DNA from: Polyangium jinanense
GTDB lineage: Bacteria > Myxococcota_A > Polyangia > Polyangiales > Polyangiaceae
Assembly: GCF_028435265.1 (NCBI RefSeq)
Contig: NZ_JAGTJK010000012.1
Span: 166,900 to 230,899 of the forward strand
Reading direction: 5' to 3'
Length of the DNA: 64,000 bases
The translations under genes were made by a program, and so were the position numbers. Below are positions 306-53,052 of this stretch, in pieces. Under the pieces are notes generated by a model. The model did no database searches and was not told the origin of the DNA. It saw only the letters and a program-made list of their open reading frames with translations. Position 1 is the stretch's first letter; each line of letters starts with the position of its first letter.

Positions 306-1346
306 TCACCATTGCACTTCGACCGAGCCGCTCATGGGCCCGAGCCCCACGCGCACCTGCGTCCCCGGCCCGAGCTTGCCGAAATTGGAGGGAGGCGGCT
401 CCGTGAAATAAAGCGCGATCCCGGTGCCGAGCAACGCGACCCCGACGGGCAGCGCGACATTGCTCATCATCCCCGTGATGGCCGCCGTCTGCTTGGCGCC
501 CACGCCCGTCGTGTTGCAGATTTTGGGGTTCGTGGGGAGGCAATTCTTTTCGATCGGCTCCTTTTGCGCCCACGTGATGATGCCCATCACGAGTCCCCCC
601 GCGATGCCCACCGCGCCGAGCCCCCCGAGCGTGTAGGCCGCGACGCGACGGCCCGAGATCCCACTATCGAGCTTGGGGAACCTCGAGGGCACCGGCTGCA
701 GGGCCGTCGCCGTCTTCGTGGGCTCGCCGGTCTCCGTCGCCGGCGGCATCACGACGTCGATGACCTGGTTTTCCCCCTCCTTCAGTCGGAACTTCGTGAA
801 CACGGAGGGGCGGCCCGGGATCTCGGTCGTGAGCACGTGCTCGCCCGGATCGATCGGGAGCGGGACGCCAATCCTCACCTCCAAGGGCGGACCCCCCTCG
901 AGCGACTTGCGGAGCACGCGCGTCGTCGCCGGGGCGTTGCGCGGGACGCGGAGGATGACCTTGGGGATCTTCGCCTCGAGCGCATGGCGCCGCGCCGAAG
1001 CGGCCTCCTCGTTGTCGCGCTCGGCCTTCTGTTCGAGGTCCGAGAGCTGTTCGAACGCCGTGAGGTATTCGTCGTAGTGCACGGCCGCCGTGGCGATGCG
1101 GCCCCACTTGTCGTAACACGTGGCGAGCCAGAAGAGCGTGGACGGGCGCGGTTCCTCGCGGTAGGCGACCTTGAACGCGGGGCAGGCCGTCACGAAGTTT
1201 CCGGCCTCCATCTCGACGCGCGCCGCCTGGACCGCCGCCGCCTGCGACCCATCGGCCTGCCGCGTGCCCGCGGGCTCGTCCGCCGAGGCACGCGCGGTCA
1301 CCGTGCAAAGAGCGATGCCCGCGAGAAGGAGCGATACCGGACGCAT
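306..1346 (-). CDS. secreted helical (TPR-like) protein with a C-terminal TM-Cx7C-TM membrane module; paralog of 55149..56162
   Basis: ATG at 1346 gives MRPVSLLLAGIALCTVTARA signal peptide (first 57 aa of the ORF are an Arg-rich extension); C-terminus has two hydrophobic helices flanking NCLPTNPKICNTTG; same architecture as the product of 55149..56162. Confidence 0.65.
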   Translation of the reverse strand: MRPVSLLLAGIALCTVTARASADEPAGTRQADGSQAAAVQAARVEMEAGNFVTACPAFKVAYREEPRPSTLFWLATCYDKWGRIATAAVHYDEYLTAFEQLSDLEQKAERDNEEAASARRHALEAKIPKVILRVPRNAPATTRVLRKSLEGGPPLEVRIGVPLPIDPGEHVLTTEIPGRPSVFTKFRLKEGENQVIDVVMPPATETGEPTKTATALQPVPSRFPKLDSGISGRRVAAYTLGGLGAVGIAGGLVMGIITWAQKEPIEKNCLPTNPKICNTTGVGAKQTAAITGMMSNVALPVGVALLGTGIALYFTEPPPSNFGKLGPGTQVRVGLGPMSGSVEVQW

Positions 1347-1543
1347 CGTTTTCGATGTTACAGGCTGATCCGACGGCGGATCAAGAACAATACAAGCGCG
1401 CGGCGGAGGCCCTCGGCGCGGCCGTGGCGGTCGGTCCCGGCGCGTCAGCTTGTCTCGAGCGCGAAACTCTGAGAACGTGGCGCGCGCAGGAGGGCGCGAA
1501 CGTTCATGCCGCGGCAAGCCGGGTGAGGAGGCGCGAGGAAGGT

Positions 1544-2281
1544 ATGGGCAGGGGCATTTCGAGGTTCGGCTGGCTCTCGTTCGTGTTCATGGCGGGATGC
1601 GCGGGGAGCGGGGACGTCGTGCGTCAGGGGGCGCTGCCCACCATGGGCTTCGAGGCCGAGGCCGATCCCGCGCCCGTAGACGCGGAGTCCACGCCACCCG
1701 CGCTGGCGCCCGCGCCGCCCGCGCAGAAAGTGCCGCCCGCGCCGAAAGACCCGCCGTCATTTCGCGCGCCGACGGTTCCATACAGCCTCGGCGTCCTCGG
1801 CCTCGGCGCGGCGTTCATCGTGGCCGGCGGCGTCATGATGGGCGTCGCGGAGACGGCCGACGAGCGGTGCGGCGTCGCCGGTTGTTATGGCGTCCTCGAC
1901 CCGAACCTCGATTTCGCGGGCAGGCTCTTCCTGGCGAACGGCATCGGCATCGGCATCGCCTCCGTCACGGCCACGCTCGTCGGGCTCGGGACCGACGGAA
2001 CACCCACCCCGCGGAAGAGCGACGCATTCACGGAGCGGGGCATCTTCGCGACGGCCCTCGGCGTGGGCCTCGCGTGCACGGGCCTCGCGGCCGCCAGGGG
2101 GGACGATTTCCAGCTCGAAGGTTTGCCGAGCGCGGTGGCCACCGGGGCCTACCTCGGCGCGCTCGCGGTTACGGGCCTGGGCCTCGGTTTCTGGATCTAC
2201 GGCGCGCGCAACGCGCAGGCCCCCGCCGCCGCGTCTTTGCGCGTGGGTCCGACTTCGGCGCAATTCACGGTACGCTACTGA
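1544..2281 (+). CDS. membrane lipoprotein, hypothetical
   Basis: ATG at 1544 preceded by GAGGAAGG RBS; MGRGISRFGWLSFVFMAGCAGSG lipobox; several Gly/Ala-rich hydrophobic segments. Confidence 0.55.
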   Translation: MGRGISRFGWLSFVFMAGCAGSGDVVRQGALPTMGFEAEADPAPVDAESTPPALAPAPPAQKVPPAPKDPPSFRAPTVPYSLGVLGLGAAFIVAGGVMMGVAETADERCGVAGCYGVLDPNLDFAGRLFLANGIGIGIASVTATLVGLGTDGTPTPRKSDAFTERGIFATALGVGLACTGLAAARGDDFQLEGLPSAVATGAYLGALAVTGLGLGFWIYGARNAQAPAAASLRVGPTSAQFTVRY

Positions 2282-21450: not shown

Positions 21451-22403
21451 GGGTTCGCAAAGTACGCGTCGACGGATTCCGGGGTTTGCCGGACCAGGAG
21501 TTTTCCCTGACCGATCCGCGCACGGACAGCGCCCACGAGCTCGTGGTCGTGACCGGCCCGCGCGCGAGCGGCAAGACGAGCTTCCTCGAAGCGATCGTCG
21601 CGGCGAAGGAGCAGGTTGGCCCGTATGGCCCCGCCGCGCCGCCGTCGAGTTTCCTGCGCCCCGGCGTGAGCACGGCGAAGGTGCGCGTCGAATGGGAGCT
21701 CTCGAATGGGGAGCGAGATCGGTACGGCACGGGCAAACGCGCATTCGTGAGCGAGTCGATCTTCGGCGACCTCGTGGTCGATCCGCCGGAGCCGGATCCG
21801 GCGCTCGCGGCGTTGCTCTCGGAGTACATCCCGGAGCCGGCGTTCGGGAAGGTCGAGTATTTCCACGCCTCGCGGAGGCTGCCCCTCGGGTCGACGATCG
21901 ATCTGTCGAAATCGGCCGGAGACAGCCTCGATCGTATGGTGAGGCTCGGCCGCGACGACACGAAGTACGCGGGGCTCGTGCGGTTCATCGTGGAGGCGGG
22001 GCTCGGGCTCGACGTGGACGCCGAGGGCAAACCAAAGCCAAAGGGACGCATCAAAAAGGCGTTCGAGGCGCTTTGCCCGACGAAGGAACTCGGAGGGCTC
22101 TACAAGGCGGGGGACGCGATGCTGCCGGTGTTCCTCGACGGACGGCGCAGGGCGTACAGCATCGCGCAGCTCTCGGACAGCGAGCTCGACGCGCTGCTCT
22201 TCGCGACGACATTCGTGCGGGCGGGCATCGGTCAATCGATCGTGCTCGTCGACACGCCGGAGAAGCACCTCGGCGACGTGGAAGCGCGCGAGTTCGTGAA
22301 GGCGCTCGCGACGCTCGGCGCGGACAACCAGCTCATCGTGGCGACGCAATCGGCGGCGCTCGTGTCGAGCGTGCAGGCGGATCAAGTGATCCGGCTCGGG
22401 TGA
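21447..22403 (+). CDS. ABC-class (AAA_21/AAA_15-like) ATPase coupled to vgrG
   Basis: ATGA overlap with the vgrG stop; Walker A VVTGPRASGKTSFLEAI; signature-like LSDSELDALLFA; Walker B/D-loop SIVLVDTPEKHLGD resembling the LIDEPENHLHP motif; 318 aa, no fused nuclease domain. Confidence 0.7.
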   Translation: MRVRKVRVDGFRGLPDQEFSLTDPRTDSAHELVVVTGPRASGKTSFLEAIVAAKEQVGPYGPAAPPSSFLRPGVSTAKVRVEWELSNGERDRYGTGKRAFVSESIFGDLVVDPPEPDPALAALLSEYIPEPAFGKVEYFHASRRLPLGSTIDLSKSAGDSLDRMVRLGRDDTKYAGLVRFIVEAGLGLDVDAEGKPKPKGRIKKAFEALCPTKELGGLYKAGDAMLPVFLDGRRRAYSIAQLSDSELDALLFATTFVRAGIGQSIVLVDTPEKHLGDVEAREFVKALATLGADNQLIVATQSAALVSSVQADQVIRLG

Positions 22404-22407
22404 GGTG

Positions 22408-22836
22408 ATGGCGGTCTACGAGGTCGACGAGTTTTCGTTCGAGGTGCCCGACGGGTACGTCGATCGCAGCATGAACCTGTTCACGCCGCCTGCGGGGCTC
22501 ATGCAGGCGACGCGGCAGAGCCTGCTCGTGACGCGGGAGCCGCGCACGGAGGAGACGGTGTCGCAGCAGGCCTCGCGGCTCGTGAAGGAGCTCGCGGCGA
22601 AGGTGCCGGGGATGAAGGTCCTCGGGCAGCGGGATCGTGCCCTCGGCGCGCTGCCCGGCCGGGAGGCGCGGATCCACGCGGTGCAGGGCACCGTGCCGGT
22701 CTATCAGCGATGTTTTTTCGTGGGCCATTACGGCACGTTGCTCACGGTCATCGCGACGTCGATGCGGTCGCAGAGCGCGCAATGCGATGCGCTCGTCGAG
22801 CGATTCATCTCGAGCTTGCGCCTGAAGAAGCGTTGA
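22408..22836 (+). CDS. DUF1795/DcrB-fold Eag-like T6SS effector chaperone (copy 1)
   Basis: about 143 aa; N-terminal YEVDEFSFEVPDGYVDRSMNLF pattern; sits between vgrG and a TMD-bearing prePAAR protein; the identical-length paralog follows. Confidence 0.5.
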   Translation: MAVYEVDEFSFEVPDGYVDRSMNLFTPPAGLMQATRQSLLVTREPRTEETVSQQASRLVKELAAKVPGMKVLGQRDRALGALPGREARIHAVQGTVPVYQRCFFVGHYGTLLTVIATSMRSQSAQCDALVERFISSLRLKKR

Positions 22837-22851
22837 GGCGGAGGAGGAGCT

Positions 22852-23283
22852 TTGGGCTTTTATCAGACGCAGGAAGCGGGCTTCGAGCTGCCGGCGAACT
22901 GGACCGACGCGAGCATCAACATGCTCGAGTATCCGCGCCCGGAGGGTTTGATCCGGGTGGGTTTGTCGCGGGCCGAGCGCGGGAACCGGGACCTCGCGGC
23001 GAGCCTGGAGGAGGTGATCGTGGAGCAGCGGCGGAAGCTGCCGTTCTTCGAGCTCCTCGGGCGCGTGGATCGCGTCTGCGGGGGTTTGCCCGGGATCGAC
23101 ACGAGGGTCACGTACGAGGAGTCGTCGCGCAAGGTGTATCAGCGGGCGCTCTCGTTTGTGATCGGGGGGCGGTTCTTCGTGCTGGGCGTCAAGGGAACGG
23201 CGACGCAGGAGGCCGAGGTCGACGCGATGTTCGAGCGGGCGGCGTCCACGTTCACGTTACGCGCGCGGCCCTCGGGGGCCTGA
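22852..23283 (+). CDS. DUF1795/DcrB-fold Eag-like T6SS effector chaperone (copy 2, TTG start)
   Basis: TTG at 22852 after GGAGGAGGAG RBS; 143 aa, collinear similarity to copy 1 (YQTQEAGFELPANWTDASINMLEY). Confidence 0.5.
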   Translation: MGFYQTQEAGFELPANWTDASINMLEYPRPEGLIRVGLSRAERGNRDLAASLEEVIVEQRRKLPFFELLGRVDRVCGGLPGIDTRVTYEESSRKVYQRALSFVIGGRFFVLGVKGTATQEAEVDAMFERAASTFTLRARPSGA

Positions 23284-24444: not shown

Positions 24445-26715
24445 CTACCGCCCGCCGCGCCCCGCGGGCTGCGATTGCACCACGCGACCCAGTGCAAGCA
24501 CCCGCAGCGTGATCGGCTCATTGTCCGCCGGATCCTGCTGCGGGTGCGGCTCGGCAATGGCGCGGACGCGGAACTTCGGGAAGAGCGGCAGCTTCTCGGC
24601 GAGCGCCTCCGGCATGTACGTCGGCAAAGGCGATCCGCTGCCCAGAGAGAGTATTCCCCCGATGTGCTCCCCGCCGAAGAGCTTGCGCCTGAGGTAATGC
24701 CGCTCCTCGATCAGAATGCGCTGCGCCGTCGTTTCGAGGTAATCCGACGCGAGCGACCGATTGGCCTGGGCAAACGCCTGCCGCACGCGTGACAGCGCGC
24801 CCTCGAGCAGAGGCACCGCCGCGCTCCGCGGCCCCCGGCAAAGCTCCTCCGCCGCGTCGAGCGCCTCCTTCAGCCGCTTGTCCACCCCCGCGAGCTGCGA
24901 GGCCACGGCGATCGTCGTTTTCAGCGTCTCCAGCGGGTCGCAGGTCATCACGAGCTCGCCATTCACGAGGACGAGCGGCTGTTCGAAGATCCCATCCTCG
25001 TCGATGGCCTCCTCCATCACGCGGGCAATGCCGACCGCGTCGAGCGGAGGCACGCGGCCGAGCGCGCGCCGAATGTCGCGCCGATCGGTCATGGCCTGCG
25101 TCGGTTCCTCCGGTTCCTCGCCCGTGAGCCACTCCGTCGGGCGCTGCGGATCCCGCACGTACGAGGCCCACGCCGATTGCTGACGCACGCGTTGGGGGGC
25201 GCGCTCGTCGAACCAGATCAGATCGACGTATTCCGAGGTCGGCGCGCGGCGCCGCGCAGGTGCGCTCGTCGATATCGCGGGCGCGGCCGGTTCGGGGCGC
25301 GGCGCGGCGACGGCCGCCGCATCGGAGGCCGCCGCGAGGCCGCCGAGCGTCGCCTGGGCATCGTGCACGGGCGGCGCGACGGGCGCGGGCGGCACGGGCG
25401 CCGCGATGGGCACGGGCGCGGGCGGCGCGACGGGCGCGGGCGGGGGCGTATACATCGGCGGCGCAGCCGGGGGCGCGGGGGCCGGCGCGCTCAGCGACGA
25501 GGCCGGCGCACTCAGGAAGGGAAGGCGCCCGCCGGACGCGGGGGGCCGGGCCGCAGGCGCCTCGGGCGCGGGGCTGGGCGTCGACTGGAACGGCAAGACA
25601 CGCCCCGCGGCGGCGGCCTGCGCGAGGCTCGGATCGGCGATCGTCTGGGCCCGCGGCGGCACGGGTTTCGCGGATTTCGCCTCCGCGTCGTCGTTCGGGG
25701 GAATCGATTTTTGCGGGCGCGGCGGCGCCTCGGGCGCGGCCGCGGACTTCGAGGGCGGCGCGTTGTCGAGCCAGATTCGCACCTCGCCCGGTTCGTCGCG
25801 CTGGCGCATGGGGATCTGCGCGCGGAACGTCAGCGTGCAGAGCAGCCGATCGGTATCGATCCACAAGGTATCGGCGCGCATCGGCTGCGCGGCCGCGCCG
25901 CGGCCCTCGATCAGGAACACCGGCTGGAGGCCCGGCAGGTTCGTGACGAGCCGCGGCACGCTCGGGTGTAAGTTTTCGAGGATGATCCGCGCGTTCGGGG
26001 GCAGGAAATCGGTCTGCTGATCCGGCGGCGCCGCATTGAAATAGCGGAAATCGAAGCCGTCGGGGACGTGTGATTCGTACCAGCGCTCGGGCAAGCTGCT
26101 CCGGGCGAGCGCGCCGAGCCGCTCGCGCCGGGAGGGCCACGCGGGCGCGAGCGGGCCGAACCCGACGGGCTCGACGTAATCGGCGGGGGCGCGGACCGTG
26201 ACGCCCGGCCACGTGAGGTTCGGCACGCGCACGCGCCCCATTCCGTCGGCCCATCCCGCGCGCACGCCGACCGGATTCGCCGTGTCCGGACCACCGCCGG
26301 ACCGCTCGTAGACGAGCGGCATGCGCGCGAAGCGTTGCCCCTCGGCGAGGGATCCGTCGGGCTGGAACCAGCGATCCAGGGTGACCTCGATCGACTTGTC
26401 GACCTCGCCGACGATGAGCCGCGCGACGACCGAGCGCGCGGGGACCTGCTGCGGCGCGTGCGCGGAGCCCACGAGGAGCACGTCCGCGCGAGGCTTGAAG
26501 GGCACGAGGTCGCCGGGCGCGCGCAGGCTTCGGTTCGTGTCGTCGTCCCAGTGCTCGTCGGCGGAGGTGATGTCTTCTTGCGCCTCGGCGAGCTGGGACG
26601 TGCCCGGCGCGAGGGAAAACGTCGCCTTGCAGACGAGCGTGAACACCCACCCCTGCGAGCGGTTCGGCCAGACCAAAGGCGCACAGGGGAACGGGATGTT
26701 CGAGACGATTTTCAT
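24445..26715 (-). CDS. extended DUF2169-like protein (T6SS cargo adaptor family), 756 aa, with Pro/Ala-rich linker and extra C-terminal helical domain
   Basis: N-terminus MKIVSNIPFPCAPLVWPNRSQGWVFTLVCKATFSLAPG is the characteristic DUF2169 start as I recall it; T6SS island context; convergent, 2 bp from the PAAR-protein stop. Confidence 0.5.
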   Translation of the reverse strand: MKIVSNIPFPCAPLVWPNRSQGWVFTLVCKATFSLAPGTSQLAEAQEDITSADEHWDDDTNRSLRAPGDLVPFKPRADVLLVGSAHAPQQVPARSVVARLIVGEVDKSIEVTLDRWFQPDGSLAEGQRFARMPLVYERSGGGPDTANPVGVRAGWADGMGRVRVPNLTWPGVTVRAPADYVEPVGFGPLAPAWPSRRERLGALARSSLPERWYESHVPDGFDFRYFNAAPPDQQTDFLPPNARIILENLHPSVPRLVTNLPGLQPVFLIEGRGAAAQPMRADTLWIDTDRLLCTLTFRAQIPMRQRDEPGEVRIWLDNAPPSKSAAAPEAPPRPQKSIPPNDDAEAKSAKPVPPRAQTIADPSLAQAAAAGRVLPFQSTPSPAPEAPAARPPASGGRLPFLSAPASSLSAPAPAPPAAPPMYTPPPAPVAPPAPVPIAAPVPPAPVAPPVHDAQATLGGLAAASDAAAVAAPRPEPAAPAISTSAPARRRAPTSEYVDLIWFDERAPQRVRQQSAWASYVRDPQRPTEWLTGEEPEEPTQAMTDRRDIRRALGRVPPLDAVGIARVMEEAIDEDGIFEQPLVLVNGELVMTCDPLETLKTTIAVASQLAGVDKRLKEALDAAEELCRGPRSAAVPLLEGALSRVRQAFAQANRSLASDYLETTAQRILIEERHYLRRKLFGGEHIGGILSLGSGSPLPTYMPEALAEKLPLFPKFRVRAIAEPHPQQDPADNEPITLRVLALGRVVQSQPAGRGGR

Positions 26716-26819: not shown

Positions 26820-28109
26820 TCAATGGCAGCAGGTATTGCTGGCCCAGGCCACGCCGCCGCCGGACCGGTAGATCACGACGTTGCCGTCGTTCTGTACGGC
26901 GAGATTGGCGTAGTAATTCGACGAGCCGGCCGTGCCCGAGGCCCAGACGGGCTGGCCCGTGGACTTGTAGATCACGAGGTTGCCGTCCTCCTGCATGATG
27001 GCGCGGTCGCCGCCCTTGCCGTTCGTGCCGGAGGCCCAGAGCGGCGAGCCGCCCTGGTAAAGCACGAGGTTGCCGTCGCCCTGGAACTTGAGCTGGAAGC
27101 GGCCGTCACACGACCAGACCGATTGCTCCGCCCCGAGCCCCTGGCCGGAAGAAAGCCAGCCGCAGCCCGACGGCGACGCATACGCGGCGTAACGCGACCA
27201 GATGCCCGCGCGATCGTCGTCCGCGAGCGAGGTGTCGTTGCCGGTGTAATACGCATACATGGTCGCGGCCGAGTCGGTCGAATGGCCGAGGCCGAGGGCG
27301 TGACCGACCTCGTGCAGGGCGACGGTCTCGAGGTAGGCCGAGGACCAGCCCTCCGCGTCGTCGAAATGCACGTCGCCTCCGAGGCCGCCGCCCGGCGAAT
27401 AGGCGTGGGCGAGGACGCCGGACGAGCCGTCGAATGCACTGCTGCAGCCATGGCTGCCCGTGTAGAACCCGAACGAGATGTTCTCGCCCGAGCTCACCTC
27501 GGAGAAGCTCAAGGACGAGGAGGATCGCCACGAGAAGAGCGCGTTCTCGATCGCGGAGCGAACGGAGGCCTGGGCGAAGTCCGAGGTGTAATTCGCGAAC
27601 CGATAGGTCAGCGCCGTGGACGACCAGGTCCCGCCGAAGTGCGTGTAGGGGTCGATGTCGAGGGTCGGCACGACGCTCGGCGGATCGTAATAATCGGGGT
27701 GGCTGCAGCGCGGCATCTGCATGATTCGCTGCGTCGCGGCGTCGACGACGCCGGTCACGGGCAGGCCGTGCTGGGCCTGGTAGAGGCGCACGCCCTCTTC
27801 GAGGGCCTCGTCGAAGAGCTCCGGATCGGCCGGCTCGCGTGAGACGGCGGGCGTCCAGTCGGCGTAATGCTCGGCGAGCTCCTCGTTCTGGTAATACCCA
27901 TAGCGACGCAGATACTCGTACACGCCGCGCACCTCCGCGCCCCGCGCGCCGAGCCCGAGGCCCGCGGCGCTCTCGGCATCCACGGAAGCCTCGTCGCCGA
28001 GCGTCGAGACGTCGTCGCCCGCGCATCCCACGAGGGTCGTCGAGGCGGCCAGGGCGAGAGGCGCGAGAAACAGTGCGAAGCGGGAGTCGAAAAGGTTCGT
28101 CGAGGCCAT
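26820..28109 (-). CDS. secreted M10 matrixin-type zinc metalloprotease with N-terminal peptidoglycan-binding domain and C-terminal bulb-type (B-)lectin repeats
   Basis: ATG at 28109 (MASTNLFDSRFALFLAPLALAASTTLVGCAGDD lipobox; upstream 118 aa of the ORF is Arg/Pro-rich); HEVGHALGLGHS zincin motif; PG_binding_1-like YLRRYGYY; three QxDGNxVxY repeats. Confidence 0.85.
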   Translation of the reverse strand: MASTNLFDSRFALFLAPLALAASTTLVGCAGDDVSTLGDEASVDAESAAGLGLGARGAEVRGVYEYLRRYGYYQNEELAEHYADWTPAVSREPADPELFDEALEEGVRLYQAQHGLPVTGVVDAATQRIMQMPRCSHPDYYDPPSVVPTLDIDPYTHFGGTWSSTALTYRFANYTSDFAQASVRSAIENALFSWRSSSSLSFSEVSSGENISFGFYTGSHGCSSAFDGSSGVLAHAYSPGGGLGGDVHFDDAEGWSSAYLETVALHEVGHALGLGHSTDSAATMYAYYTGNDTSLADDDRAGIWSRYAAYASPSGCGWLSSGQGLGAEQSVWSCDGRFQLKFQGDGNLVLYQGGSPLWASGTNGKGGDRAIMQEDGNLVIYKSTGQPVWASGTAGSSNYYANLAVQNDGNVVIYRSGGGVAWASNTCCH

Positions 28110-29399: not shown

Positions 29400-30581
29400 T
29401 TACTGGCACTCGCCGAAGTCCATGTAGTCGGGGATGTTGTACGAGAAGCAGGACTTCCCACCGGAGCAGGGGTGTGCGTCGTCGCAATACGCGAGGCAGC
29501 GTTTGTTGTTGTCACCCGCGGAAAACTCGACGCCGCACCGGGCATTCACGCCGCAATCGGCGTCCCACAGGCAGATCTCGCCGACGGGCACGGGGCCGGC
29601 GTGGCCGCACGCGAAGCCGCCGGCGCCGGAGATGTCCACGATTCCGTCGTTCGTGAGGGAGTTGCGGTCGCGACACGTCGAGCCCGCCTCGCAACCATTG
29701 CTGAAGGGTGTACAGGTCGGGATGCAGACACCGGCCAGGGGCGAACCGGTCCAGTAGGCGAGGCACAGCTCGCCCGCGTCGCAATCACTCGCCTTGGCGC
29801 AGTACTCCCGGCAGGCGAAGTTGTTCGGCGCCTTGGCGTCGTCGGTGCAGAGCAGGCCCGGGGCGCAGTTGTCTTCGCCGAAGGCGGTCCGCGTACACGC
29901 AGCGCCCTCCGCGACGGCGCCGCCCACGGCCTCGCACACCGAGAAGTAGGTCTTCTTTTCCCCCGCGGGGTCGACCAGCGTGCATTCGCTGCCGGCGCCG
30001 CAGTTCTGTCCCACGAGGTCGCAGCAGGCGCTCGTGGCGCTGGCCGGGAGGGCCTGCTCGGGGAGCGCCATGGCGCAGGTCGTGCCCGTCGTGGTGACGG
30101 TGCAATTCAGCGCCAGATTGCCGTTCTCGAGCTTGGCGGTGCATTCGTAGGGAGACTTCGTGGAGAGGTGGGAGAGCTCGCCCGAGAAGGTCGCGACATC
30201 CCCGTCCACGGTGCCGGTCATCACGCCCATGTTGGTGGAGACGGTGAGTGTGCAGTCGTTTTGCGCGACGCATGCGCTCTTGAGCAGCCCCCCCATGGGG
30301 CACGGGGCCGGCTCCGTCACGACGTAGGTGCCGTTGAAATTGGCGCAGGCCGGGCCACCGCCGCCCGTACCACCGGAACCACCGGAGCCGCCCGCGCCAC
30401 CGGAACCACCGGAGCCGCCCGCGCCACCGGAACCACCGGAGCCGCCGACGCCGCCGACGCCGCCAGCGCCGCCGGAGCCGCCAGCGCCGCCGCTGCCGCC
30501 GTTGTTGGTCTCCGTGCAGCCAAAGGCCACGAGGGATGTGAGGAGAAGACTGGCGAGAAGAACGCGATTGCGAGATTGCAT
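29400..30581 (-). CDS. Cys-rich secreted lipoprotein with Gly/Ser linker, hypothetical
   Basis: ATG at 30581: MQSRNRVLLASLLLTSLVAFGC lipobox, (GGSGGAGG)n linker, more than 40 Cys. Confidence 0.65.
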   Translation of the reverse strand: MQSRNRVLLASLLLTSLVAFGCTETNNGGSGGAGGSGGAGGVGGVGGSGGSGGAGGSGGSGGAGGSGGSGGTGGGGPACANFNGTYVVTEPAPCPMGGLLKSACVAQNDCTLTVSTNMGVMTGTVDGDVATFSGELSHLSTKSPYECTAKLENGNLALNCTVTTTGTTCAMALPEQALPASATSACCDLVGQNCGAGSECTLVDPAGEKKTYFSVCEAVGGAVAEGAACTRTAFGEDNCAPGLLCTDDAKAPNNFACREYCAKASDCDAGELCLAYWTGSPLAGVCIPTCTPFSNGCEAGSTCRDRNSLTNDGIVDISGAGGFACGHAGPVPVGEICLWDADCGVNARCGVEFSAGDNNKRCLAYCDDAHPCSGGKSCFSYNIPDYMDFGECQ

Positions 30582-30883: not shown

Positions 30884-31339
30884 TTAGAACCGACCCAACA
30901 CCACGATTCCCCGCTGCTCCCCGCTCAGGAGGGGTGCAATGGAGACCTGCGGCTGCGTCGGGCTCGAATGCGGCTCGGGATTGATCCACGCGAGCACCAA
31001 TCCAAGAAAGACCCCCGCCGCGCCCACGCCGAGCGCCGTGGTCGCGATCCGCCCGTCGACCGTCGCCTTGTCGCGGAGCGCATATCCCTCCGCGTCGCAC
31101 TTGTCCGGATCCGACGTGAGGCAATGCTGCTTCGTCGCCGCATTCGCCTCGTCCGAGCGCGCCGCATACACCGCGCCCGCCACGATCCCACCGATGCCCG
31201 CACCCACGACGAACGACGCCGCAATGCGGGGACCGGTCCAGAACGGCGTCGGCGGGGGTTCCGGCGGCGCTGCCGGGGGTTCGGCCCAGGCGATCGCGGG
31301 GAGCAGGAGCGTGACCAGGAAAAAGGGCAGGGACCGCAT
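30884..31339 (-). CDS. small secreted/membrane protein made up only of the TM-Cx7C-TM module
   Basis: ATG at 31339, 1 nt downstream of the STAND NTPase stop; signal peptide MRSLPFFLVTLLLPAIAWA; two hydrophobic helices flanking HCLTSDPDKCDAEG; C-terminal GIVVLGRF. Confidence 0.55.
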   Translation of the reverse strand: MRSLPFFLVTLLLPAIAWAEPPAAPPEPPPTPFWTGPRIAASFVVGAGIGGIVAGAVYAARSDEANAATKQHCLTSDPDKCDAEGYALRDKATVDGRIATTALGVGAAGVFLGLVLAWINPEPHSSPTQPQVSIAPLLSGEQRGIVVLGRF

Positions 31340-31340
31340 G

Positions 31341-34300
31341 TCAGAGATCGAAGAGCTCGTCGTCCTGGCCCGCGTCTTCCTCGGCGAGGAGGGCCTCCGC
31401 GTGCTTGGCGACCGATTCGAAGAATTTTTGCTCGGGGGATTTCGGGGGCAATCGAGCAGCGGCTTCCCGGGCCTGCGAGCGGAGGAGCGTTTCGCTGCGC
31501 TCTGCCCGGGCGCCCGAGCGCGGTCGCGCCTGGCCCGTGACGACCGAGAAGAGCGCGCTCCGGACCCGCTCGAAGCAGCCCTCGCCGGTCGTGTGCGCGC
31601 GCCGGAGGAGCGTCGCGACGAGCTCGAGGTGCGCGAAGAGGAAGGTGGGCGGCGCCTCTTCGAGGAGCGCGGAGATCGCTTCGAGCTCGCTCTCGCCGCC
31701 GTCCTGCACCCACTCGGAGAGGACCTCGACCGTCGGTAACGCAAACGAGCGCGAGGCGTCGTGGAAGAGGCGCGCGGCATGGAAGCGGACCCAGCCAATG
31801 CGGGCCCGCGCGAGGTGGCGGACACGGCGCAGGAGCGGGAGCCACTCCGGCGAGCGCGCGAGGCCCGTGAGGATCGCAGACAAGCCCTCGGGCGGGAGCG
31901 GCTCGTACTCCTCGGCGCCCGCGACGATGCCGGACGCGGCGCGCGCGATGCGCTCGATGAAGAGGCCCGTGACGTCCTCGGGCATGCGCTTGCCGGCGTG
32001 GTGGAGGAAGCGCATCGTGGAGTGGCCGTCGAGGCTGCGGGCCGCGCCGAGGCGCGTGAGGAAGAGGATGATCTCCTCCTCGGAGAGCGCGCCTTCGGAG
32101 AAGAGGCCGCCCGCGTCGAGGGCGCCGAAGAGGGCCTCGGCGACCTCGGGGCCCTCGGAGAGGTCCACGCCGACCGCGAGCTCGACCGCGTCGCGTGGAG
32201 AGGACTTGGCCAGCGTGCGGAGCGCGCCGAGCGCCGCGCGTCGGACGAAGCCGTCGCGGTGCCCGAGGAGGTGCCGGAGCGCTTCGCGATCGCCCGGCAG
32301 GGGCTTTTCGACCCAGCGATGGAAGACCTGCGCGAGCGAGGCGCAAAGCGTGGCGTTGCCGCCCCCGACGATGCTGCCGACGAGGGCCTCGGCGCGCTCG
32401 GGCGAGGCTTCGCGGAGCGCGTGGAGCAAGGAGGCGACGTGCGGGCCGAGTGGGCTCTCGGGCGCGCCCATGACGGCCTCGCAAATGGTCACCGCCGCCG
32501 CCGGGTGCTTGCGGGAGAGGACGTGCAGGAGGAGCCGCGGCGAGCCGGATTTGCCCGCGAGCGCGAGGGCTTCGAGCGCCGCGCCGAGCCCCTCGGCCGT
32601 CTGCGCAGGCGCGCGGCCCTCGGCGAGCATCTCGTCGACGACGGCGCGACAGGCGTCCGCCGAGCGGCGCTCCGTGCCACGATCGATCTCGCCCGAGCCC
32701 GGGATCTCGCTCGGCGGCATGTCGATCAAGCCGCGCTGCGCGGGTGAGCGTTGCGTGAGGGCCTCGTAGAGCCTGCGCTCCGTCGAGGTCGGGACGTTGC
32801 CGAGGGCCGTCTCGGCCGCGGCGCGGACGTCCGGAGAGCTCGCACGCCGGGCCGCGCGGCGAAGCGCGTCGGCGACGGCGAAATGGACGAGCGGGTCGCC
32901 GGAGTTCGACGCGGCGGCGCCGAGCATCGCGAGGATCTCGAGCCGCTCCTCGTCGCGCCACCCAGGCTCCATCCGCTCGCCGAGCGAAGAACCACCGGAG
33001 CCGTCGGAGAGGACACGCTCGAGGCCGTTGACCCCCGAGAGAGCCGCGCGTCGTTTCGGCGATTGCGCGCAGCCGGAGAGCGCGGCGAGGGCTTGCTTCC
33101 GCAGGGCGCGGCGGCGCTCGTCGGAGGGGCCGGCGAAGGCGGCGCCCTCGGAGAGGAAGGTGTCGATCACGTCGAGCGGTGAGTGCTTGTGATCGTGCGC
33201 GTCGTCCGCGACGAGCCATCGATCGACGGCGTCGAGCAAGGACTCGTGGACGCCGGCAGGGCGCGCCGACGAGCGCGAGGCGAGCTCGCGGAGGACACGC
33301 ATGGGGTGATCGGGGTGCGGGCTCTGGAGACGGAGATCGTCGCGGCCGAGCTCCCAGAGGAGGTCGGCGGCGCGGGGCAAGTGCGCGAGGTGCAGGCCCA
33401 CGCGGCGCAGGATCGCGGGGAGCTCGTAGAGGACGGACACGGCGGAGAAGAGGGCGCTGGGGCCCCGCGCGGCCTCGGTCTGCGCAGGAGAACGGAGGAC
33501 CGCCGCGGCGAGGTCGAGCATCGCGGCGGGATGATCCGAGGAGAGCTCACGCAGGCCGGCGAGGAGGCGGCATCGATCCGCCGCCGAGGCCGCGTCGATG
33601 CCCGCGCGGACGTGGCGGAAGAGGGCGGTCGTGATCTCGTCGGAAGCGCCGCTCGGGAGGGAGGGGCCGTCGAGCTCGCCGGCGTTGCGGATGAGCGGGA
33701 CGATGGCGTGGGCGCCGAAGCGCTCTTCCAGCGCGCGCACGCGATCGTCGAGCGAGCCCGCGAGGCTGCCCGCGGTCAAGGGGCCGACGAGCGCGCGGTA
33801 GAGCGCGTGATCCGAGAGCGCGCCGGGGACGACACGCGCGCCGTGTGGGCCCCGATCGACGACGCCCGCGGCTTCGAGCGCGCGGAGCGCCGACACGAGA
33901 TCACGACGGCGACACCCGAGCAGATCCCCCGCGCCCTGAAGGAAGCGCTCGTCCGAGGTGCGCACCGGCGCGAGGAGCGCGACGAGCGCGAGCACGCCGG
34001 CGAGGAGTTTTGGATCCCCCGCGGCGGAGGAGCGGAGCAGGAGCAGCTCGTGGCCCCGATCGAGCGCGCATGCCGCGAGCTCGCCCTTGCCGAGCAAGAC
34101 GGGATGAATGGCCTCTTCCCGCACGAGCCGGCCGGCCAGCGCGATCACGAAGGGATGCCCCTCGGCGTGCTTGGCGAGGGCGGCAGCGAACTCGCCGGGC
34201 GCATCGCCGAGCACATGCTGCGCGGCCGCTTCCGCCTCGCTCGGCGAGAGCGCGCCGAGCTCGGGCAGGATGCGCACCAGGTCCGACGAGAGCCCGACCT

Positions 34301-34787
34301 GCGCGAGGAGCGCCGAGAGGCGCGGCAGGCCCGCGGGGCGCGTCGTCAGCACGAAGCGCACGTCGCGGCGATCGATCGCCATGGGCAGGAGCATCGCGGG
34401 CGCGGCTTTGCGGCCCGCGTCGTCGATCACGATCAGGCACGGGCCGGGCGGCAGGCGTGTCGGGGTCGGCGCGCTGGTGATGTCGGTCGCGAAGCGCAGC
34501 ATGGTGCCGACCCGCTGCGCGGCGAGGGCGTCGGCGAGCGCGGAGAGCAGGCTCGTCTTGCCGGAGCCGGAGCGCCCGGGGAGCACGGCGACGCGCGCCG
34601 GGCCGCGTGCGCTTGCGAAGTCGACGAGGGCCGCGAGGATTTCGGCGCGCCCGCCGAAGGGCAGCGCTTCCTGGAAGGGGCGGCCTGCGGCGAGCGCGCC
34701 GCCTTCGAACTCGCTCGGGCCAAAGAGCGCCACACCGTGCTCGATGTGGGCGTCCGGAGGAGTGGGGAAGCCGAGGGTCGTCTCCAT
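31341..34787 (-). CDS. STAND-type P-loop NTPase with a large alpha-helical repeat C-terminal domain (1149 aa)
   Basis: ATG at 34787; FGGRAEILAALVDF, then Walker A LPGRSGSGKTSLLSALA and Walker B PCLIVIDDAG; more than 800 aa of Ala/Leu-rich helical repeats; upstream 76 aa of the ORF is Arg-rich. Confidence 0.75.
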   Translation of the reverse strand: METTLGFPTPPDAHIEHGVALFGPSEFEGGALAAGRPFQEALPFGGRAEILAALVDFASARGPARVAVLPGRSGSGKTSLLSALADALAAQRVGTMLRFATDITSAPTPTRLPPGPCLIVIDDAGRKAAPAMLLPMAIDRRDVRFVLTTRPAGLPRLSALLAQVGLSSDLVRILPELGALSPSEAEAAAQHVLGDAPGEFAAALAKHAEGHPFVIALAGRLVREEAIHPVLLGKGELAACALDRGHELLLLRSSAAGDPKLLAGVLALVALLAPVRTSDERFLQGAGDLLGCRRRDLVSALRALEAAGVVDRGPHGARVVPGALSDHALYRALVGPLTAGSLAGSLDDRVRALEERFGAHAIVPLIRNAGELDGPSLPSGASDEITTALFRHVRAGIDAASAADRCRLLAGLRELSSDHPAAMLDLAAAVLRSPAQTEAARGPSALFSAVSVLYELPAILRRVGLHLAHLPRAADLLWELGRDDLRLQSPHPDHPMRVLRELASRSSARPAGVHESLLDAVDRWLVADDAHDHKHSPLDVIDTFLSEGAAFAGPSDERRRALRKQALAALSGCAQSPKRRAALSGVNGLERVLSDGSGGSSLGERMEPGWRDEERLEILAMLGAAASNSGDPLVHFAVADALRRAARRASSPDVRAAAETALGNVPTSTERRLYEALTQRSPAQRGLIDMPPSEIPGSGEIDRGTERRSADACRAVVDEMLAEGRAPAQTAEGLGAALEALALAGKSGSPRLLLHVLSRKHPAAAVTICEAVMGAPESPLGPHVASLLHALREASPERAEALVGSIVGGGNATLCASLAQVFHRWVEKPLPGDREALRHLLGHRDGFVRRAALGALRTLAKSSPRDAVELAVGVDLSEGPEVAEALFGALDAGGLFSEGALSEEEIILFLTRLGAARSLDGHSTMRFLHHAGKRMPEDVTGLFIERIARAASGIVAGAEEYEPLPPEGLSAILTGLARSPEWLPLLRRVRHLARARIGWVRFHAARLFHDASRSFALPTVEVLSEWVQDGGESELEAISALLEEAPPTFLFAHLELVATLLRRAHTTGEGCFERVRSALFSVVTGQARPRSGARAERSETLLRSQAREAAARLPPKSPEQKFFESVAKHAEALLAEEDAGQDDELFDL

Positions 34788-48899: not shown

Positions 48900-48917
48900 G
48901 CCAGGGCGCCGGACGGA

Positions 48918-50921
48918 TCAAAGCTCACTGCAGAGGGGATCCCCGGGGGCGCATCCCTTTCGCGGCGGCGCGGAGCCCTGCGGGCGGGGCGCCAGGCCGG
49001 GGGTGAACTCCGCGAGCTCGAGCAGGTTCACGAAGCGGGCCCTGTGCCCGCCGGGATCCGTGCCGAGGTTTTTCTTGGCCATCGCCGCGATGTCCGCGAC
49101 CGTCAGGTTCCCCTTGAATGGCGAATCTCGTAGCAGCAGGCCAAACGCCGCCACCGACGCGGCGAAGTAGAAATCCGTGCTCCCCCCCCGATGCCATTCG
49201 TCCCGGAGCGGCACTTCGATCTCCTGGCTCGTTTGTCCCGACATGTCCTTGTAATGGACCCGCAGCGTGAGCAGGTACGGCACGCGCGGCGCCTCCGAGC
49301 CCCCCGAGGTATCGGGCCTGGGTTCGAGCTCGTAGAGCGCGGTCACCCCTTGCCCGGCGTACAGATCGACCGGGCCTTTCCAGGCATCCAAAAACTCGCG
49401 CTCCGGTCCCGTCCGATCCTCGTTCCCGATCAGCCGGAACGACCGCACGTACAGCGGATCGAAATCGACCTCGACCCGCACGTCCCTCGCGATCGGCGTG
49501 CGCGTCCCCATGGCCTCGTCGACCAGCTCCTTGCGCGCGTCGTCCGGGCTCGTGATCTCCGCGAAGCTCCCCTTGCCCTCCTCGGCCAGGCGCTTCAAGG
49601 TTTGTCCGGCCGGACCATCCATCGGACCGAACCCGAGCGCCGACAGCGAAATGCCCGTAGCCGCCTTCTCGCGGACGAGCGCCGTGAGCCGGCCCTCCTC
49701 GGAATTCGCCACGAAATGGGCGTCCGTCGCCAGAAAGACCCGGTTCACGCCGCCCGCGACGAAATGCGCCTGCGCCTCCTTGAAGGCTCGCGCGAGGGAA
49801 TCGCCGGAAGGGGCCGTCACGCTCGGCTCGAACTTGTCGATGGCGGTGAGGAGCCGAGGTTTGTCGTCGCCCGGCGTCGGCGGCAGATGAGGCTCCTCGG
49901 AGGGGTCTCCGTACGCGAGGAGCGTCAGCCGATCCCGCTCGTCGAGCCGCGAGACCAGCCTGCGCAGGGCGGCCTGGAGCAGCGGCAGTTTGTCCGGATC
50001 CTTGGCGAAGCCGGGCGATTTGTCGATCACGAAGACCAGGTTTGTCTGGGGGCGGATCGACGGATCGAACGGCGCTGTTTTCAGCGCGAGGCGCACGAGC
50101 CTGTGCGAACGGTTCCACGGCGCCGCGTCGACCTCGGCCCGGACGGCGAGCGGCGCGTCTCCGATCGGGGGCGGGTCTTCGTAGGGGAACGCATTGACGA
50201 GCTCGTCGACGCGCACCAGGCCCGGCGTCGGCCTGCGCGCGGCCTCGCGGATGTACCGCTCGACGAGCGAATACGAGGCCGTGTCCATGTCGAGTGGGAA
50301 CGTCGAACGTGCGATGCTCGTCGTGTAGATGAACGGGTTCTCGTCGGCCCTCGGCTTCGATCGCGCGGTCAGCCTGCGGGGCTTCGGGATCCTCTCCGCA
50401 ACCTCGCCACCCTGACGTGCCCGGTCCTCCTGGAGCATTCTCAGGATCTCTCGCCGCGTCGCCTCGTCGATCTTCGTGTCGTCTTTCGGGGGCGGCGCCG
50501 TCGTCTTTTCCTTCTCCTTCTGCGGAGCCTCGAACGCCGCCAAGTCTTTCATCGCTTGCTCCGCCGCGAGCAGGGTTTTTCGGCGTTGAACCATCACGCC
50601 GAGCGGAATCGCGACGAGCGCGACCGCGGCGGCCGCGAGCAACATCGGCTGGAGAAAACGCCTTCGGAGCGGCATCACCTTGGGGGTTTCCGTCTCGCGC
50701 GTGGCCTCCTCCAGCACCTTTCGTTGCTTTGCCGGAAGCGCCTTCGGCGCGCGCTCCGCGAGCCCTTCGCGCAGCATCTCCGCCGTCATCCGCAGGGCGT
50801 CGATCTCCGCGCGGATGTCCGGATCACCGTCGATCGCCGCCTCGATTTCGCGCGATTCGGCCTCGTCGAGCTCGCCGAGCACGTACGAAAGCAGGCGCGG
50901 ATCGTCCTTCGAGAGCGTCAT
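48918..50921 (-). CDS. anti-sigma factor with periplasmic vWA domain (YfbK-like, DUF3520-type C-terminus)
   Basis: ATG at 50921 (MTLSKDDPRLLSYVLGELDEAE anti-sigma N-domain); TM LLAAAAVALVAIPLGVMV; NLVFVIDKS vWA-like; FRLIGNEDR; upstream 517 aa of the 1184-aa ORF is Arg-rich. Confidence 0.7.
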   Translation of the reverse strand: MTLSKDDPRLLSYVLGELDEAESREIEAAIDGDPDIRAEIDALRMTAEMLREGLAERAPKALPAKQRKVLEEATRETETPKVMPLRRRFLQPMLLAAAAVALVAIPLGVMVQRRKTLLAAEQAMKDLAAFEAPQKEKEKTTAPPPKDDTKIDEATRREILRMLQEDRARQGGEVAERIPKPRRLTARSKPRADENPFIYTTSIARSTFPLDMDTASYSLVERYIREAARRPTPGLVRVDELVNAFPYEDPPPIGDAPLAVRAEVDAAPWNRSHRLVRLALKTAPFDPSIRPQTNLVFVIDKSPGFAKDPDKLPLLQAALRRLVSRLDERDRLTLLAYGDPSEEPHLPPTPGDDKPRLLTAIDKFEPSVTAPSGDSLARAFKEAQAHFVAGGVNRVFLATDAHFVANSEEGRLTALVREKAATGISLSALGFGPMDGPAGQTLKRLAEEGKGSFAEITSPDDARKELVDEAMGTRTPIARDVRVEVDFDPLYVRSFRLIGNEDRTGPEREFLDAWKGPVDLYAGQGVTALYELEPRPDTSGGSEAPRVPYLLTLRVHYKDMSGQTSQEIEVPLRDEWHRGGSTDFYFAASVAAFGLLLRDSPFKGNLTVADIAAMAKKNLGTDPGGHRARFVNLLELAEFTPGLAPRPQGSAPPRKGCAPGDPLCSEL

Positions 50922-51445
50922 CGGGTCCTCCTCGCGGCTTCGCGGTCCTTCTTCTCCACCTGCTCGCGCAGCGCGCGCAGCGCCGTATGCAAGAGGAATC
51001 CCACGTTCGACACGCTCGTCCCGAGCACCTCCGCGATCTCCTGGTAGCTCAGGTCGCCGCTGAATTTGAGCAGGACCGCCTCGCGTTGTCGTTCCGGCAG
51101 GGTATCGAGCGCGCCGAGCACGCGGCGCATCGCCTCCCGGCGCTCGAGGGCCTCCGAGGGCCCGGGTTGATTGTCCGCCATGACCTCGTCCACCTCCGCC
51201 ACGGGCTCGACCTGTCGTTTGTCGCGCCGAACATCGAGGGCCCGGTTCCGGCAGACCGTGAAGAGCCAGGCCCGAAGGTGCGGCTCCACGGCCGCTCGGT
51301 CCTGGTTGCACAAGCGCAGGAACGTGTCCTGCACCACGTCGGCCGCCTGGGCGGATCCCACGATCGCCGAGGCGTAACGGAGCAAAGGGGCCTCGTAGCG
51401 CGAGAGCGCGAGAAGGACCCAGTGGCTCGTCGGTTCGCTCGGCAT
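50918..51445 (-). CDS. ECF-family RNA polymerase sigma factor
   Basis: ATG at 51445; region 2 (LRAWLFTVCRNRALDVRR) and region 4 HTH (LSYQEIAEVLGTSVSNVGFLLHTALRALR); ATGA overlap with the anti-sigma start. Confidence 0.8.
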   Translation of the reverse strand: MPSEPTSHWVLLALSRYEAPLLRYASAIVGSAQAADVVQDTFLRLCNQDRAAVEPHLRAWLFTVCRNRALDVRRDKRQVEPVAEVDEVMADNQPGPSEALERREAMRRVLGALDTLPERQREAVLLKFSGDLSYQEIAEVLGTSVSNVGFLLHTALRALREQVEKKDREAARRTR

Positions 51446-51572
51446 GGGCGCGATCGGAAGTCGTTCTCTCGAAGAACGAGGGGGCGGGAGGTTTCTTAGA
51501 GAAAAAAGTACGGGGGCGGCGCGGCGTCTCGGGCGGCTTCTCGCCGGGTGCGGATCGGGGTAGGGGCCCAAC

Positions 51573-52370
51573 ATGTCCGACTCCTCCCCGGCCCGCCACG
51601 AGGCGGCCCGCAAGAAGCGCTCGGCGCTCTTGGCTTATGTGATCCTGGGCCTCCTCGTCGCGACCTTCGTCGTGCTCCGCGTGATGGTCAAGGTGTACAA
51701 GGTCCCGTCCGGGGCGATGGTACCCACGCTCGTGCCCGGCGACTACGTCTCCGCGCTGCGGGGCGGCGAGGTGCATCGCGGCGACGTGATCGTCTTCCCG
51801 TTCCCCGAGAACCCGGATCAGCTCTTCATGAAGCGGGTGATCGGGATGCCGGGGGACAGGATCGAGTTCGTGGACGGGCGGCCCATCATCAACGGCTTTC
51901 GTGTCCCGCAATGCCGCGTGGGCCGCTACGATTGGGAGGGGCGGACGTACGAGCTTTTCATCGAATGGCTCGACGAACACGCTTACGGCGTTCTGCTCGA
52001 CGGGCCCGTCTTCGGGGAGACGTGCGAGAAGGACAGTGATTGCAGCGCGATGCAATCGTGCCGGGGCGGGATTTGCGGGACCGTGCAGGGGCCCTGGGTC
52101 GTGCCCGCGGGCGAGGCGTTCGTCATCGGCGACAACCGAATGAACAGCCACGACTCGCGGAGCTGGAAAGGTGGAATCGGACGCGGCATGCCGATCTCCA
52201 CGGTCGTCGGGCGCGTGGCGATGATCATGCTCGGCGGTTTTTCCGGCCGGAGCGCGACGCCCGTGGACGGGCCGCCCATTCTCCCGGCGGGCGCGGCGTC
52301 GCTCGGGCCTGCGATGGAAAAGTGCTTGAAGGAAAAAACCGCCGCGACGCCGCCGCCGCCCGCGCGTTAA
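51573..52370 (+). CDS. lepB: signal peptidase I
   Basis: SPase I boxes PSGAMVPTL, KRVIGMPGDRIE, GDNRMNSHDSR; N-terminal TM anchor. Confidence 0.85.
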   Translation: MSDSSPARHEAARKKRSALLAYVILGLLVATFVVLRVMVKVYKVPSGAMVPTLVPGDYVSALRGGEVHRGDVIVFPFPENPDQLFMKRVIGMPGDRIEFVDGRPIINGFRVPQCRVGRYDWEGRTYELFIEWLDEHAYGVLLDGPVFGETCEKDSDCSAMQSCRGGICGTVQGPWVVPAGEAFVIGDNRMNSHDSRSWKGGIGRGMPISTVVGRVAMIMLGGFSGRSATPVDGPPILPAGAASLGPAMEKCLKEKTAATPPPPAR

Positions 52371-52924: not shown

Positions 52925-53052
52925 GAAGAAGCCTCCTCCGACGATGTCGTTCGCCGGTCTGCGGGATACGCTACCGCCACGGCGGGCCGCGGAAAAGGGG
53001 GAGATGGTGTCGAGGCTTCCCTGCCGGCGATGGGTTGGGCTAGAATCCCGCC

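Follow-up and report, generated by a model that had tools for sequence, protein, structure and literature searches.

Introduction

A membrane-anchored accessory protein of a kinase is a known sort of thing, and in Bacillus the YycH and YycI proteins, which are encoded in the operon of the sensor kinase WalK, are of this kind. Myxobacteria have the largest bacterial kinomes, and to our knowledge the input signal and the partners of most of their Ser/Thr kinases are not known. Here we consider a C-terminal membrane module shared by three proteins, the products of genes A, B and C, encoded in a 64,000-nucleotide stretch of Polyangium jinanense DNA (contig NZ_JAGTJK010000012.1, positions 166,900 to 230,899; hereafter the window, with its features given in Table 1). 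The module is probably an inner-membrane hairpin that anchors the co-sensor or accessory subunit of a split receptor kinase, a case of this known kind rather than a new principle.

As with YycH and YycI, the partner gene can lie directly downstream of the kinase gene and is often translationally coupled to it, a folded extracytoplasmic domain would sit on a transmembrane (TM) tether, and an action between TM helices upon a kinase with a minimal outer part is proposed. In contrast to WalK the kinase here is a Hanks-type Ser/Thr kinase and not a histidine kinase, and no relationship of sequence or fold is expected; the ectodomain of the partner is made of TPR and PEGA-like domains, and its tether is a C-terminal two-helix Cys-capped hairpin with a beta tail rather than an N-terminal single TM helix. 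Two further bodies of knowledge bear on the proteins of the window. Cys pairs join two chains through Zn in the zinc hook of Rad50 and the zinc clasp of CD4 or CD8 with Lck, and TPR domains typically bind short terminal peptides, the MEEVD of Hsp90 and PTS1 being held by TPR clamps.

A C-terminal module common to three proteins

A sequence-only reading of the window had proposed that three of its proteins end in the same module, and the three open reading frames (ORFs) concerned lie where that reading placed them and are also genes of the NCBI assembly (346, 337 and 151 amino acids, aa). The product of A has 100% identity to an NCBI protein of P. jinanense. By pairwise BLASTP, A and B share 24% identity over 307 aa (E=3.8e-16) and are full-length paralogues of one TPR-PEGA-module family and not independent fusions. 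A and C share 27% identity over the last 73 aa (E=3.4e-8), and B and C compared alone give no significant match. This last result, and the richness of the sequences in G, A and V, would suit an explanation by chance or composition in which the three tails are alike only as Gly/Ala-rich hydrophobic sequence. Against this, a non-circular hidden Markov model (HMM), made only from the C-termini of database relatives of A, with neither the C family nor any window protein included, gives 49.1 bits for B and 73.3 bits for C, whereas shuffles that kept composition per segment (flank, TM1, loop, TM2 and tail; n=500) reached 2.3+/-6.5 bits for B (maximum 22.2) and 9.0+/-7.2 bits for C (maximum 30.2). 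Because the real scores exceed all of the segment-preserving shuffles, the likeness goes beyond that of composition, the outcome which the sequence-only reading had itself named as telling against a shared module. Conservation also extends to the two Cys, the motifs STxxF and TEP and the W or F at the end, and the neighbouring gene D, alike in composition and design, reaches only 1.9 bits, so that an explanation by composition is rejected as extremely improbable. Exactly three copies are found among the six-frame ORFs of the window with a 62-sequence profile (E=1e-34, 1e-31 and 3e-21), the next best ORF having E=0.19.

Gene D (1544..2281, + strand, 245 aa) is divergent from A and resembles the module in design, having a TM helix, CxxxxC, a TM helix, a beta-like tail and an aromatic end. 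Its product has a signal- or lipobox-like N-terminus and a Pro-rich linker, after which come a TM helix, ERCGVAGCYG, three further hydrophobic helices and the C-terminus ASLRVGPTSAQFTVRY (VRY). D was not counted as a fourth copy within the window, given its 1.9 bits with the module HMM, an hhalign probability of 11% and the lack of a BLAST match. The D family has 11 members, all in Polyangium, and on a 57-kb contig of Polyangium sp. 6x1 it keeps synteny with A and C.

Anatomy and predicted fold of the module

Over about 115 aa the module runs from an uncharged Gly-zipper helix through a Cys-bracketed loop into another helix without charges, which leads by a TEP exit to a beta-hairpin with W or F as its last residue. 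Within 311 aligned copies profile positions 5-26 and 59-81 are nearly charge-free, K/R or D/E being at or below 0.01 at 44 of the 45 positions, with D/E of 0.06 at position 63 as the sole exception. These spans, of 22-23 residues each and modelled as a helical hairpin, are the two hydrophobic helices of the sequence-only reading; in the same copies the first follows the pattern GGxGxxGxxxGxxxG, and the second opens with a conserved S-T-x-x-F and closes with T-E/A-P. Both Cys are kept in 129 of 130 C-termini from the family of A, at a spacing from x3 to x14 in which x4 and x7 are commonest, and so the Cx6-7C first proposed describes A and C (x7) but neither B (x4) nor the range of the family. 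Of these 130 sequences 79 end in W, 48 in F and 3 in L; the aromatic end that had been proposed is thus retained, whereas the part described as Gly-rich is a predicted two-strand beta-hairpin.

In the AlphaFold2 (AF2) model of the module (confidence score, pLDDT, 83.6) residues 2-38 and 49-85 are helical, 39-48 form a tip loop and 97-116 the beta-hairpin, and the two Cys bracket the tip loop and are adjacent to each other. The same fold is predicted when the whole of A is modelled. Tandem relatives have two to three detected hairpin units and one beta tail only, and so the repeating unit seems to be helix, Cys loop and helix; such tandem forms fit well with a unit that crosses the membrane an even number of times.

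A Foldseek search of the PDB with the module gave no significant neighbour, the best matches (E=2) being the ATP-synthase c-subunit and WXG100 hairpins. Like the F/V-ATPase c-subunits, which are the top neighbours, the module would be a membrane hairpin of two helices, the first of them Gly-rich. In contrast to them it has a beta tail and a Cys loop, its TM2 is without a conserved acidic or ion-binding carboxylate, and there is no sequence similarity, the structural match itself being non-significant (E>=2, TM-score 0.35-0.39). A hairpin of the subunit c type is not supported, given the Foldseek value, the missing TM2 carboxylate and the lack of a match among PDB sequences.

A large unnamed family with TPR and PEGA-like ectodomains

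The module has no match in Pfam-A (2025 copy), NCBIfam r20, PADLOC or the PDB sequences, even at E<=1, and neither the module nor its pairing with kinases in a TPR-PEGA protein came up as described in a full-text literature search; the sequence-only reading was right to call it apparently unnamed. A profile search of 1.84 billion cluster representatives nonetheless gave 39,136 matches at E<=1e-3 and 17,488 at E<=1e-10, and so a domain family of tens of thousands of cluster representatives is without a Pfam, NCBIfam or PDB entry. Every source named for a match is Polyangium, Sorangium, Minicystis, Byssovorax, Polyangiaceae or a metagenome-assembled genome of unclassified Myxococcota or 'Deltaproteobacteria'. 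The family is highly paralogous within genomes, the window alone having three module genes in 64 kb. Among the best 150 of the 39,136 matches the module nearly always reaches the last residue of the protein, and a TPR-PEGA N-terminal domain is present in 117 of the 148 that were fetched, the other 31 being mostly truncated gene calls. Since 117 of 148 carry the same N-terminal domain, the module is chiefly the tail of one large family.

A place at the very end of secreted proteins, shared by a great many paralogues within a single lineage of bacteria, is also what would be looked for in a sorting or processing signal of the MYXO-CTERM, PEP-CTERM or type IX secretion C-terminal domain kind, removed by a dedicated machinery. 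That the module is such a signal is very unlikely. Its two TM helices and folded tail make it, at ~115 aa, much larger than the tripartite signals of motif, TM helix and basic cluster, and at its end it has a beta-hairpin with W or F instead of basic residues; it occurs in tandem and stand-alone forms, no sortase-like gene is conserved in the neighbourhoods examined, and none of the modules of A, B and C matches an NCBIfam sorting signal (MYXO-CTERM and others) at E<=1.

Sec-type signal peptides open A, B and C (MRPVSLLLAGIALCTVTARASA, MRSLPFFLVTLLLPAIAWA and similar). The sequence-only reading had two of the copies fused to a secreted TPR-like domain, and such a domain is indeed predicted in A and B, with a helix-turn-helix repeat fold superposable in the models on solved TPR domains; the supposed fusions are, in contrast, a single paralogous family, and a PEGA-like sandwich precedes the module. 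Sequence matches to known domains are slight in the window proteins themselves. A has no Pfam TPR match, the best in B is TPR_12 at 21.3 bits (cut-off 30.1), neither has a PEGA (PF08308) match, and B has a weak CarboxypepD_reg match (E 0.094) and an E of 2.9e-52 with an HMM of the N-terminal domain. In the AF2 model of full-length A the TPR domain and the beta-sandwich, five strands at residues 129-197, have pLDDT >94. Among the 148 relatives TPR_2 is matched at E<=1e-3 in 37, PEGA in 11 (best 1e-18) and CarboxypepD_reg in 5, and all Pfam matches fall in the N-terminal part. In the PEGA-like domain the motif PVDPGEH hardly varies, and a second conserved Cys pair (C55/C77) lies within the TPR domain. 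These TPR_2 and PEGA matches place the family beside known PEGA and TPR proteins, including myxobacterial receptor kinases with PEGA/TPR ectodomains, although the known families cover the ectodomain only and not the C-terminal module, and A and B stay below their Pfam thresholds. Two relatives from JGI/IMG, P0137 and P0284, are annotated 'serine/threonine-protein kinase' yet hold only TPR, PEGA and module and no kinase domain; the label is probably an annotation transfer from receptor kinases of that type.

Pairing with sensor-less Ser/Thr kinases

Gene B lies directly downstream of a Ser/Thr kinase gene, as the sequence-only reading had it, and the GTG start of B and the stop codon of the kinase overlap in GTGA. 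In this kinase a low-complexity linker of ~95 aa joins the catalytic domain to a single TM helix (aa ~386-404), beyond which comes a periplasmic tail of 100 aa that is rich in P/A/G/S/T and without a globular domain. A module-only motif of a nine-sequence alignment yielded 40 loci of relatives from the genomes of GTDB species, and these were searched for kinases with the catalytic domain of the window kinase. In 28 of them a same-strand kinase ORF ends at the start of the ~340-aa module-protein gene, and among the others the kinase is immediately downstream (3) or divergent (1) or the contig is truncated (5). Many of the Sorangium loci are orthologous, and clustering of the module proteins at 70% identity leaves 24 lineages. 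Four of these could not be assessed, and of the remaining 20 the adjacent kinase is kept in 17 (upstream in 14, downstream in 2, divergent in 1) and absent in 3. Kinases make up ~3% of Sorangium genes, and so adjacency by chance would be expected in a few percent. Seven remote relatives of A (26-40% identity), chosen from the first homology search and so independently of the motif, partly offset the bias of a single subfamily, and five of them also have an adjacent kinase, upstream in P0051, P0104, P0112 and P0084 and downstream in P0061, with none beside P0039 and P0174. The proposal of a repeated membrane-anchoring or signalling module is thus supported by three homologues and a conserved kinase adjacency, from which anchoring or signalling is what we infer.

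The partner kinases are uniform in build, the catalytic domain being followed by a low-complexity linker of 57-166 aa, a single TM helix and a tail. Of the 39 distinct kinase ORFs in the loci 35 have TM helix and tail and the other four show no TM helix or are truncated, and the 35 tails are of 63-173 aa (typically ~100), 46-82% P/A/G/S/T, and show no globular domain. One kinase (in L027) has a PEGA-like stretch within its own tail. From their sequences the partner kinases appear to be without a sensor of their own, the folded periplasmic TPR-PEGA domain being supplied by the neighbouring gene. Several loci (L037, at 587..1576, and L025/L026) have two TPR-PEGA(-module) genes around one kinase.

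The C-terminal peptides of the kinases are conserved within lineages, with VPLLGRD, SLFGRY, GLYGRH and RLFGRD in a Sorangium-type clade, TD[ILVM]GF in a second and KKLE[DE]IE in a third, and the window kinase ends ...VPDFGGRK (55090..55152). This conservation suggests a possible capture of the kinase C-terminus by the TPR domain of the partner. No covariation of the kinase C-terminal peptide with the C-terminus of the module was evident.

If true, the pairing would mean that many sensor-less membrane kinases of Polyangia go together with a dedicated periplasmic TPR-PEGA partner held by a hairpin, and that bacterial Hanks kinases can be built as pairs of receptor and co-receptor. Proteins now labelled 'hypothetical' or 'TPR' would then gain a role as a class, and kinase mis-annotations would be corrected; concrete predictions follow as to interaction, C-terminal peptide motif and topology. 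Were the pairing only regulatory or structural, a useful new domain definition would be gained, biologically ordinary in itself.

Membrane topology, the Cys pair and a possible mode of action

The Sec-type signal peptides and the conserved Cys pair of the TPR domain point to a periplasmic location for the N-terminal part, and from this it would follow that TM1 runs out-to-in, that the Cys tip is cytoplasmic, and that TM2 runs back to leave the TEP motif and the beta-hairpin in the periplasm. In the mechanism proposed a cleavable signal peptide sends the N-terminal part to the periplasm, this being TPR and PEGA-like domains in A and B and almost nothing in C. The glycine-zipper helix TM1 would cross inward, both helices would extend by ~15 residues into the cytoplasm (a helical extension of ~32 aa in all) with the tip loop bracketed by the two Cys, and TM2 would return, so that TEP motif, short linker and W/F-ending beta-hairpin come to lie on the periplasmic face. 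The TPR-PEGA protein would in this way supply a folded periplasmic domain to a kinase that has only a disordered periplasmic tail, and the hairpin would hold that domain in the membrane of the kinase, packing on the kinase TM helix and/or offering its cytoplasmic tip. The topology is predicted from signal peptides and hydrophobic spans, and physical contact with kinase or NTPase, as well as a signalling role, would go with it. Over 311 aligned copies the K/R sum is ~4.1 in the loop and 1.4 and 2.3 in the flanks, and this excess is consistent with a cytoplasmic loop.

Several points weigh against this accessory-subunit reading. The positive-inside bias is weak, with near-membrane K/R of ~3.2 on the loop side against 2.7 outside, and a conserved RR precedes TM1 on what is presumed to be the periplasmic side. 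The predicted topology also leaves unexplained why an invariant Cys pair should be in the reducing cytoplasm; a pair that is invariant while its spacing varies suggests a disulfide-closed loop rather than a metal site. A metal site shared with the kinase finds no support in the kinases, because their juxtamembrane linkers have no conserved Cys (18 of 19 partner kinases have none there and one has a single Cys). The retrieved loci are moreover one motif-defined subfamily from Polyangia only, inspection of the profile matches covered the best 150, and A has no kinase nearby, nor has its Minicystis relative. A may work on its own or with a kinase whose gene lies elsewhere.

The same Cys pair, invariant and spaced from x3 to x14, with its two residues set side by side at the tip by AF2, could instead mean that the loop is extracytoplasmic and disulfide-bonded, the module being then a re-entrant or non-spanning hairpin, or the tail of an outer-membrane protein (OMP) with a beta-signal-like aromatic end. 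To this the weak positive-inside signal and the RR before TM1 also lend themselves, and the W/F end, which comes after an alternating pattern, recalls the OMP C-terminal signal. A terminal W or F is found in 127 of the 130 C-termini of the A family, but the predicted fold is without a barrel, having a two-strand hairpin and two long helices, and there is no Pfam OMP match. Two charge-free spans of 22-23 residues that come after a Sec signal should moreover enter the inner membrane, Sec and YidC releasing such spans there as stop-transfer and re-insertion segments, and the tandem units keep the pattern. We regard an extracytoplasmic disulfide loop as quite unlikely.

Returning to the hairpin anchor with a cytoplasmic tip, the Cys pair at the apex of an antiparallel helical hairpin is like that of the Rad50 zinc hook, and a co-receptor tail could tether a kinase as in the CD4/CD8-Lck clasp. 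The Cys spacing of x3-x14 is unlike the CxxC or CxC of hook and clasp, and a Zn-mediated hook or clasp with the kinase is not supported, since the spacing is unfixed and the kinase juxtamembrane regions have no conserved Cys.

A more ambitious proposal joins peptide capture, a Cys-hairpin switch and reuse by an NTPase into an undescribed two-gene 'split receptor kinase' of Polyangia. Here the disordered tether of the kinase would end in a lineage-conserved peptide bound by the TPR domain of the neighbour, the Cys-capped hairpin would relay that binding across the membrane with its cytoplasmic Cys pair as a redox- or metal-sensitive switch, and the hairpin alone would be reused as the membrane arm of the STAND NTPase. 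Taken jointly these parts are tentative, and doubtful as a whole.

The stand-alone copy and its STAND-like NTPase

C, with a signal peptide, a Pro-rich stub and the module, is a genuine stand-alone copy. As the sequence-only reading had it, C is downstream of a STAND NTPase gene, the two abutting at stop and start with the ATG of C 1 nucleotide after the NTPase stop codon; the NTPase is better called STAND-like, its Pfam matches being sub-threshold (nSTAND_NTPase5 at 2.4e-6, AAA_16 and NACHT). The same pair is present in P. mundeleinium, and because the flanking genes differ there the NTPase and C form a unit. Thirteen relatives make up the C family, from Polyangium or from metagenomes, every named one being of Polyangium. 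In the accessory-subunit reading C would be a bare hairpin which, translationally coupled to a cytoplasmic STAND-like NTPase, serves as its membrane partner.

This pair is where a different explanation is most plausible, namely that the module is an oligomerising channel or pore unit (a glycine-zipper ring or a beta-hairpin barrel) and C a membrane-damaging effector of a STAND conflict or defence system. In conflict systems built on NTPases or nucleotide signalling the SLATT proteins are 2-TM effectors (PMC7159879), and C is likewise a small 2-TM protein encoded beside, and translationally coupled to, a large regulatory NTPase. TM1 has GxxxGxxxG-type spacing, the closest structural neighbours, none of them significant, are c-ring hairpins of ATP synthase, and an island of the type VI secretion system (T6SS) kind is nearby. 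Unlike what would be expected of SLATT, C has a Sec signal peptide, as does every copy, and the module is mostly the tail of secreted, periplasmic TPR-PEGA proteins in kinase operons, which is untypical of suicide effectors. The STAND matches of the NTPase are only sub-threshold, and a SLATT pore-forming effector is not supported, neither C nor its family having a match in the Pfam SLATT or PADLOC models. A pore or channel is on these grounds unlikely.

Table 1. Module copies, their genes and their operon neighbours in the window (positions count from the first nucleotide of the window)
Feature	Position	Strand	Description
Gene A	306..1346	-	346 aa; ORF also called as a gene in the NCBI assembly; signal peptide aa 1-22; TPR-like helical domain aa 29-124; PEGA-like beta-sandwich aa 129-197; disordered Pro/Thr linker aa 198-230; C-terminal module aa 231-346
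Module copy 1 (A aa 231-346)	309..656	-	HMM envelope; AF2 model of A: helices 232-268 and 279-315, strands 330-335 and 340-345
Copy 1, TM1	~570-644		
Copy 1, Cys-bracketed loop	483-569		Cys codons 540-542 and 516-518
Copy 1, TM2	~414-482		
Copy 1, TEP exit and beta-hairpin tail	309-413		final residue W
Gene B	55149..56162	+	337 aa; signal peptide, TPR, PEGA-like domain, module; called in the NCBI assembly
Module copy 2 (B aa 226-337)	55824..56159	+	Cys codons 55935-55937 and 55950-55952 (C-x4-C); C-terminus GSF
Gene C	30884..31339	-	151 aa; signal peptide aa 1-19, short Pro-rich segment, module; called in the NCBI assembly
Module copy 3 (C aa 35-151)	30887..31237	-	Cys codons 31121-31123 and 31097-31099 (C-x7-C); C-terminus GRF
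Hanks-type Ser/Thr kinase	53641..55152	+	503 aa; Pfam Pkinase E=2.9e-44
Secreted protein	56162..57454	+	430 aa; Beta_helix_4 match; ATG overlaps the B stop; third operon gene
STAND-like P-loop NTPase	31341..34787	-	1148 aa; HEAT-like repeats

Neighbouring genes

The beta-helix gene that follows B was considered as a conserved third gene and rejected, no homologue of it adjoining the relatives. Upstream of the kinase-B operon are genes for a vWF_A/VWA/YfbK_C membrane protein (48915..50918, - strand), an ECF sigma factor (50915..51442, - strand) and a signal peptidase S26 (51570..52367, + strand), and a NADAR-domain gene (53050..53607, + strand) comes directly before the kinase.

Directly downstream of C is the gene of a secreted 393-aa protein (29400..30581, - strand) with a long (GGSGGAGG)n stretch after the signal peptide, a Cys-rich C-terminal part and no Pfam match. 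The T6SS-type cargo island lies further downstream, towards lower coordinates, at ~17.9-28.1 kb (positions mapped from the L002 gene table). It includes a VgrG-like gene (Phage_GPD/Gp5, ending at ~21450, + strand), an AAA_21 gene, two DcrB-domain genes (22390..23283, + strand), a DUF2169 gene (24445..26715, - strand) and a gene for a PG_binding and Peptidase_M10 protein (26820..28109, - strand).

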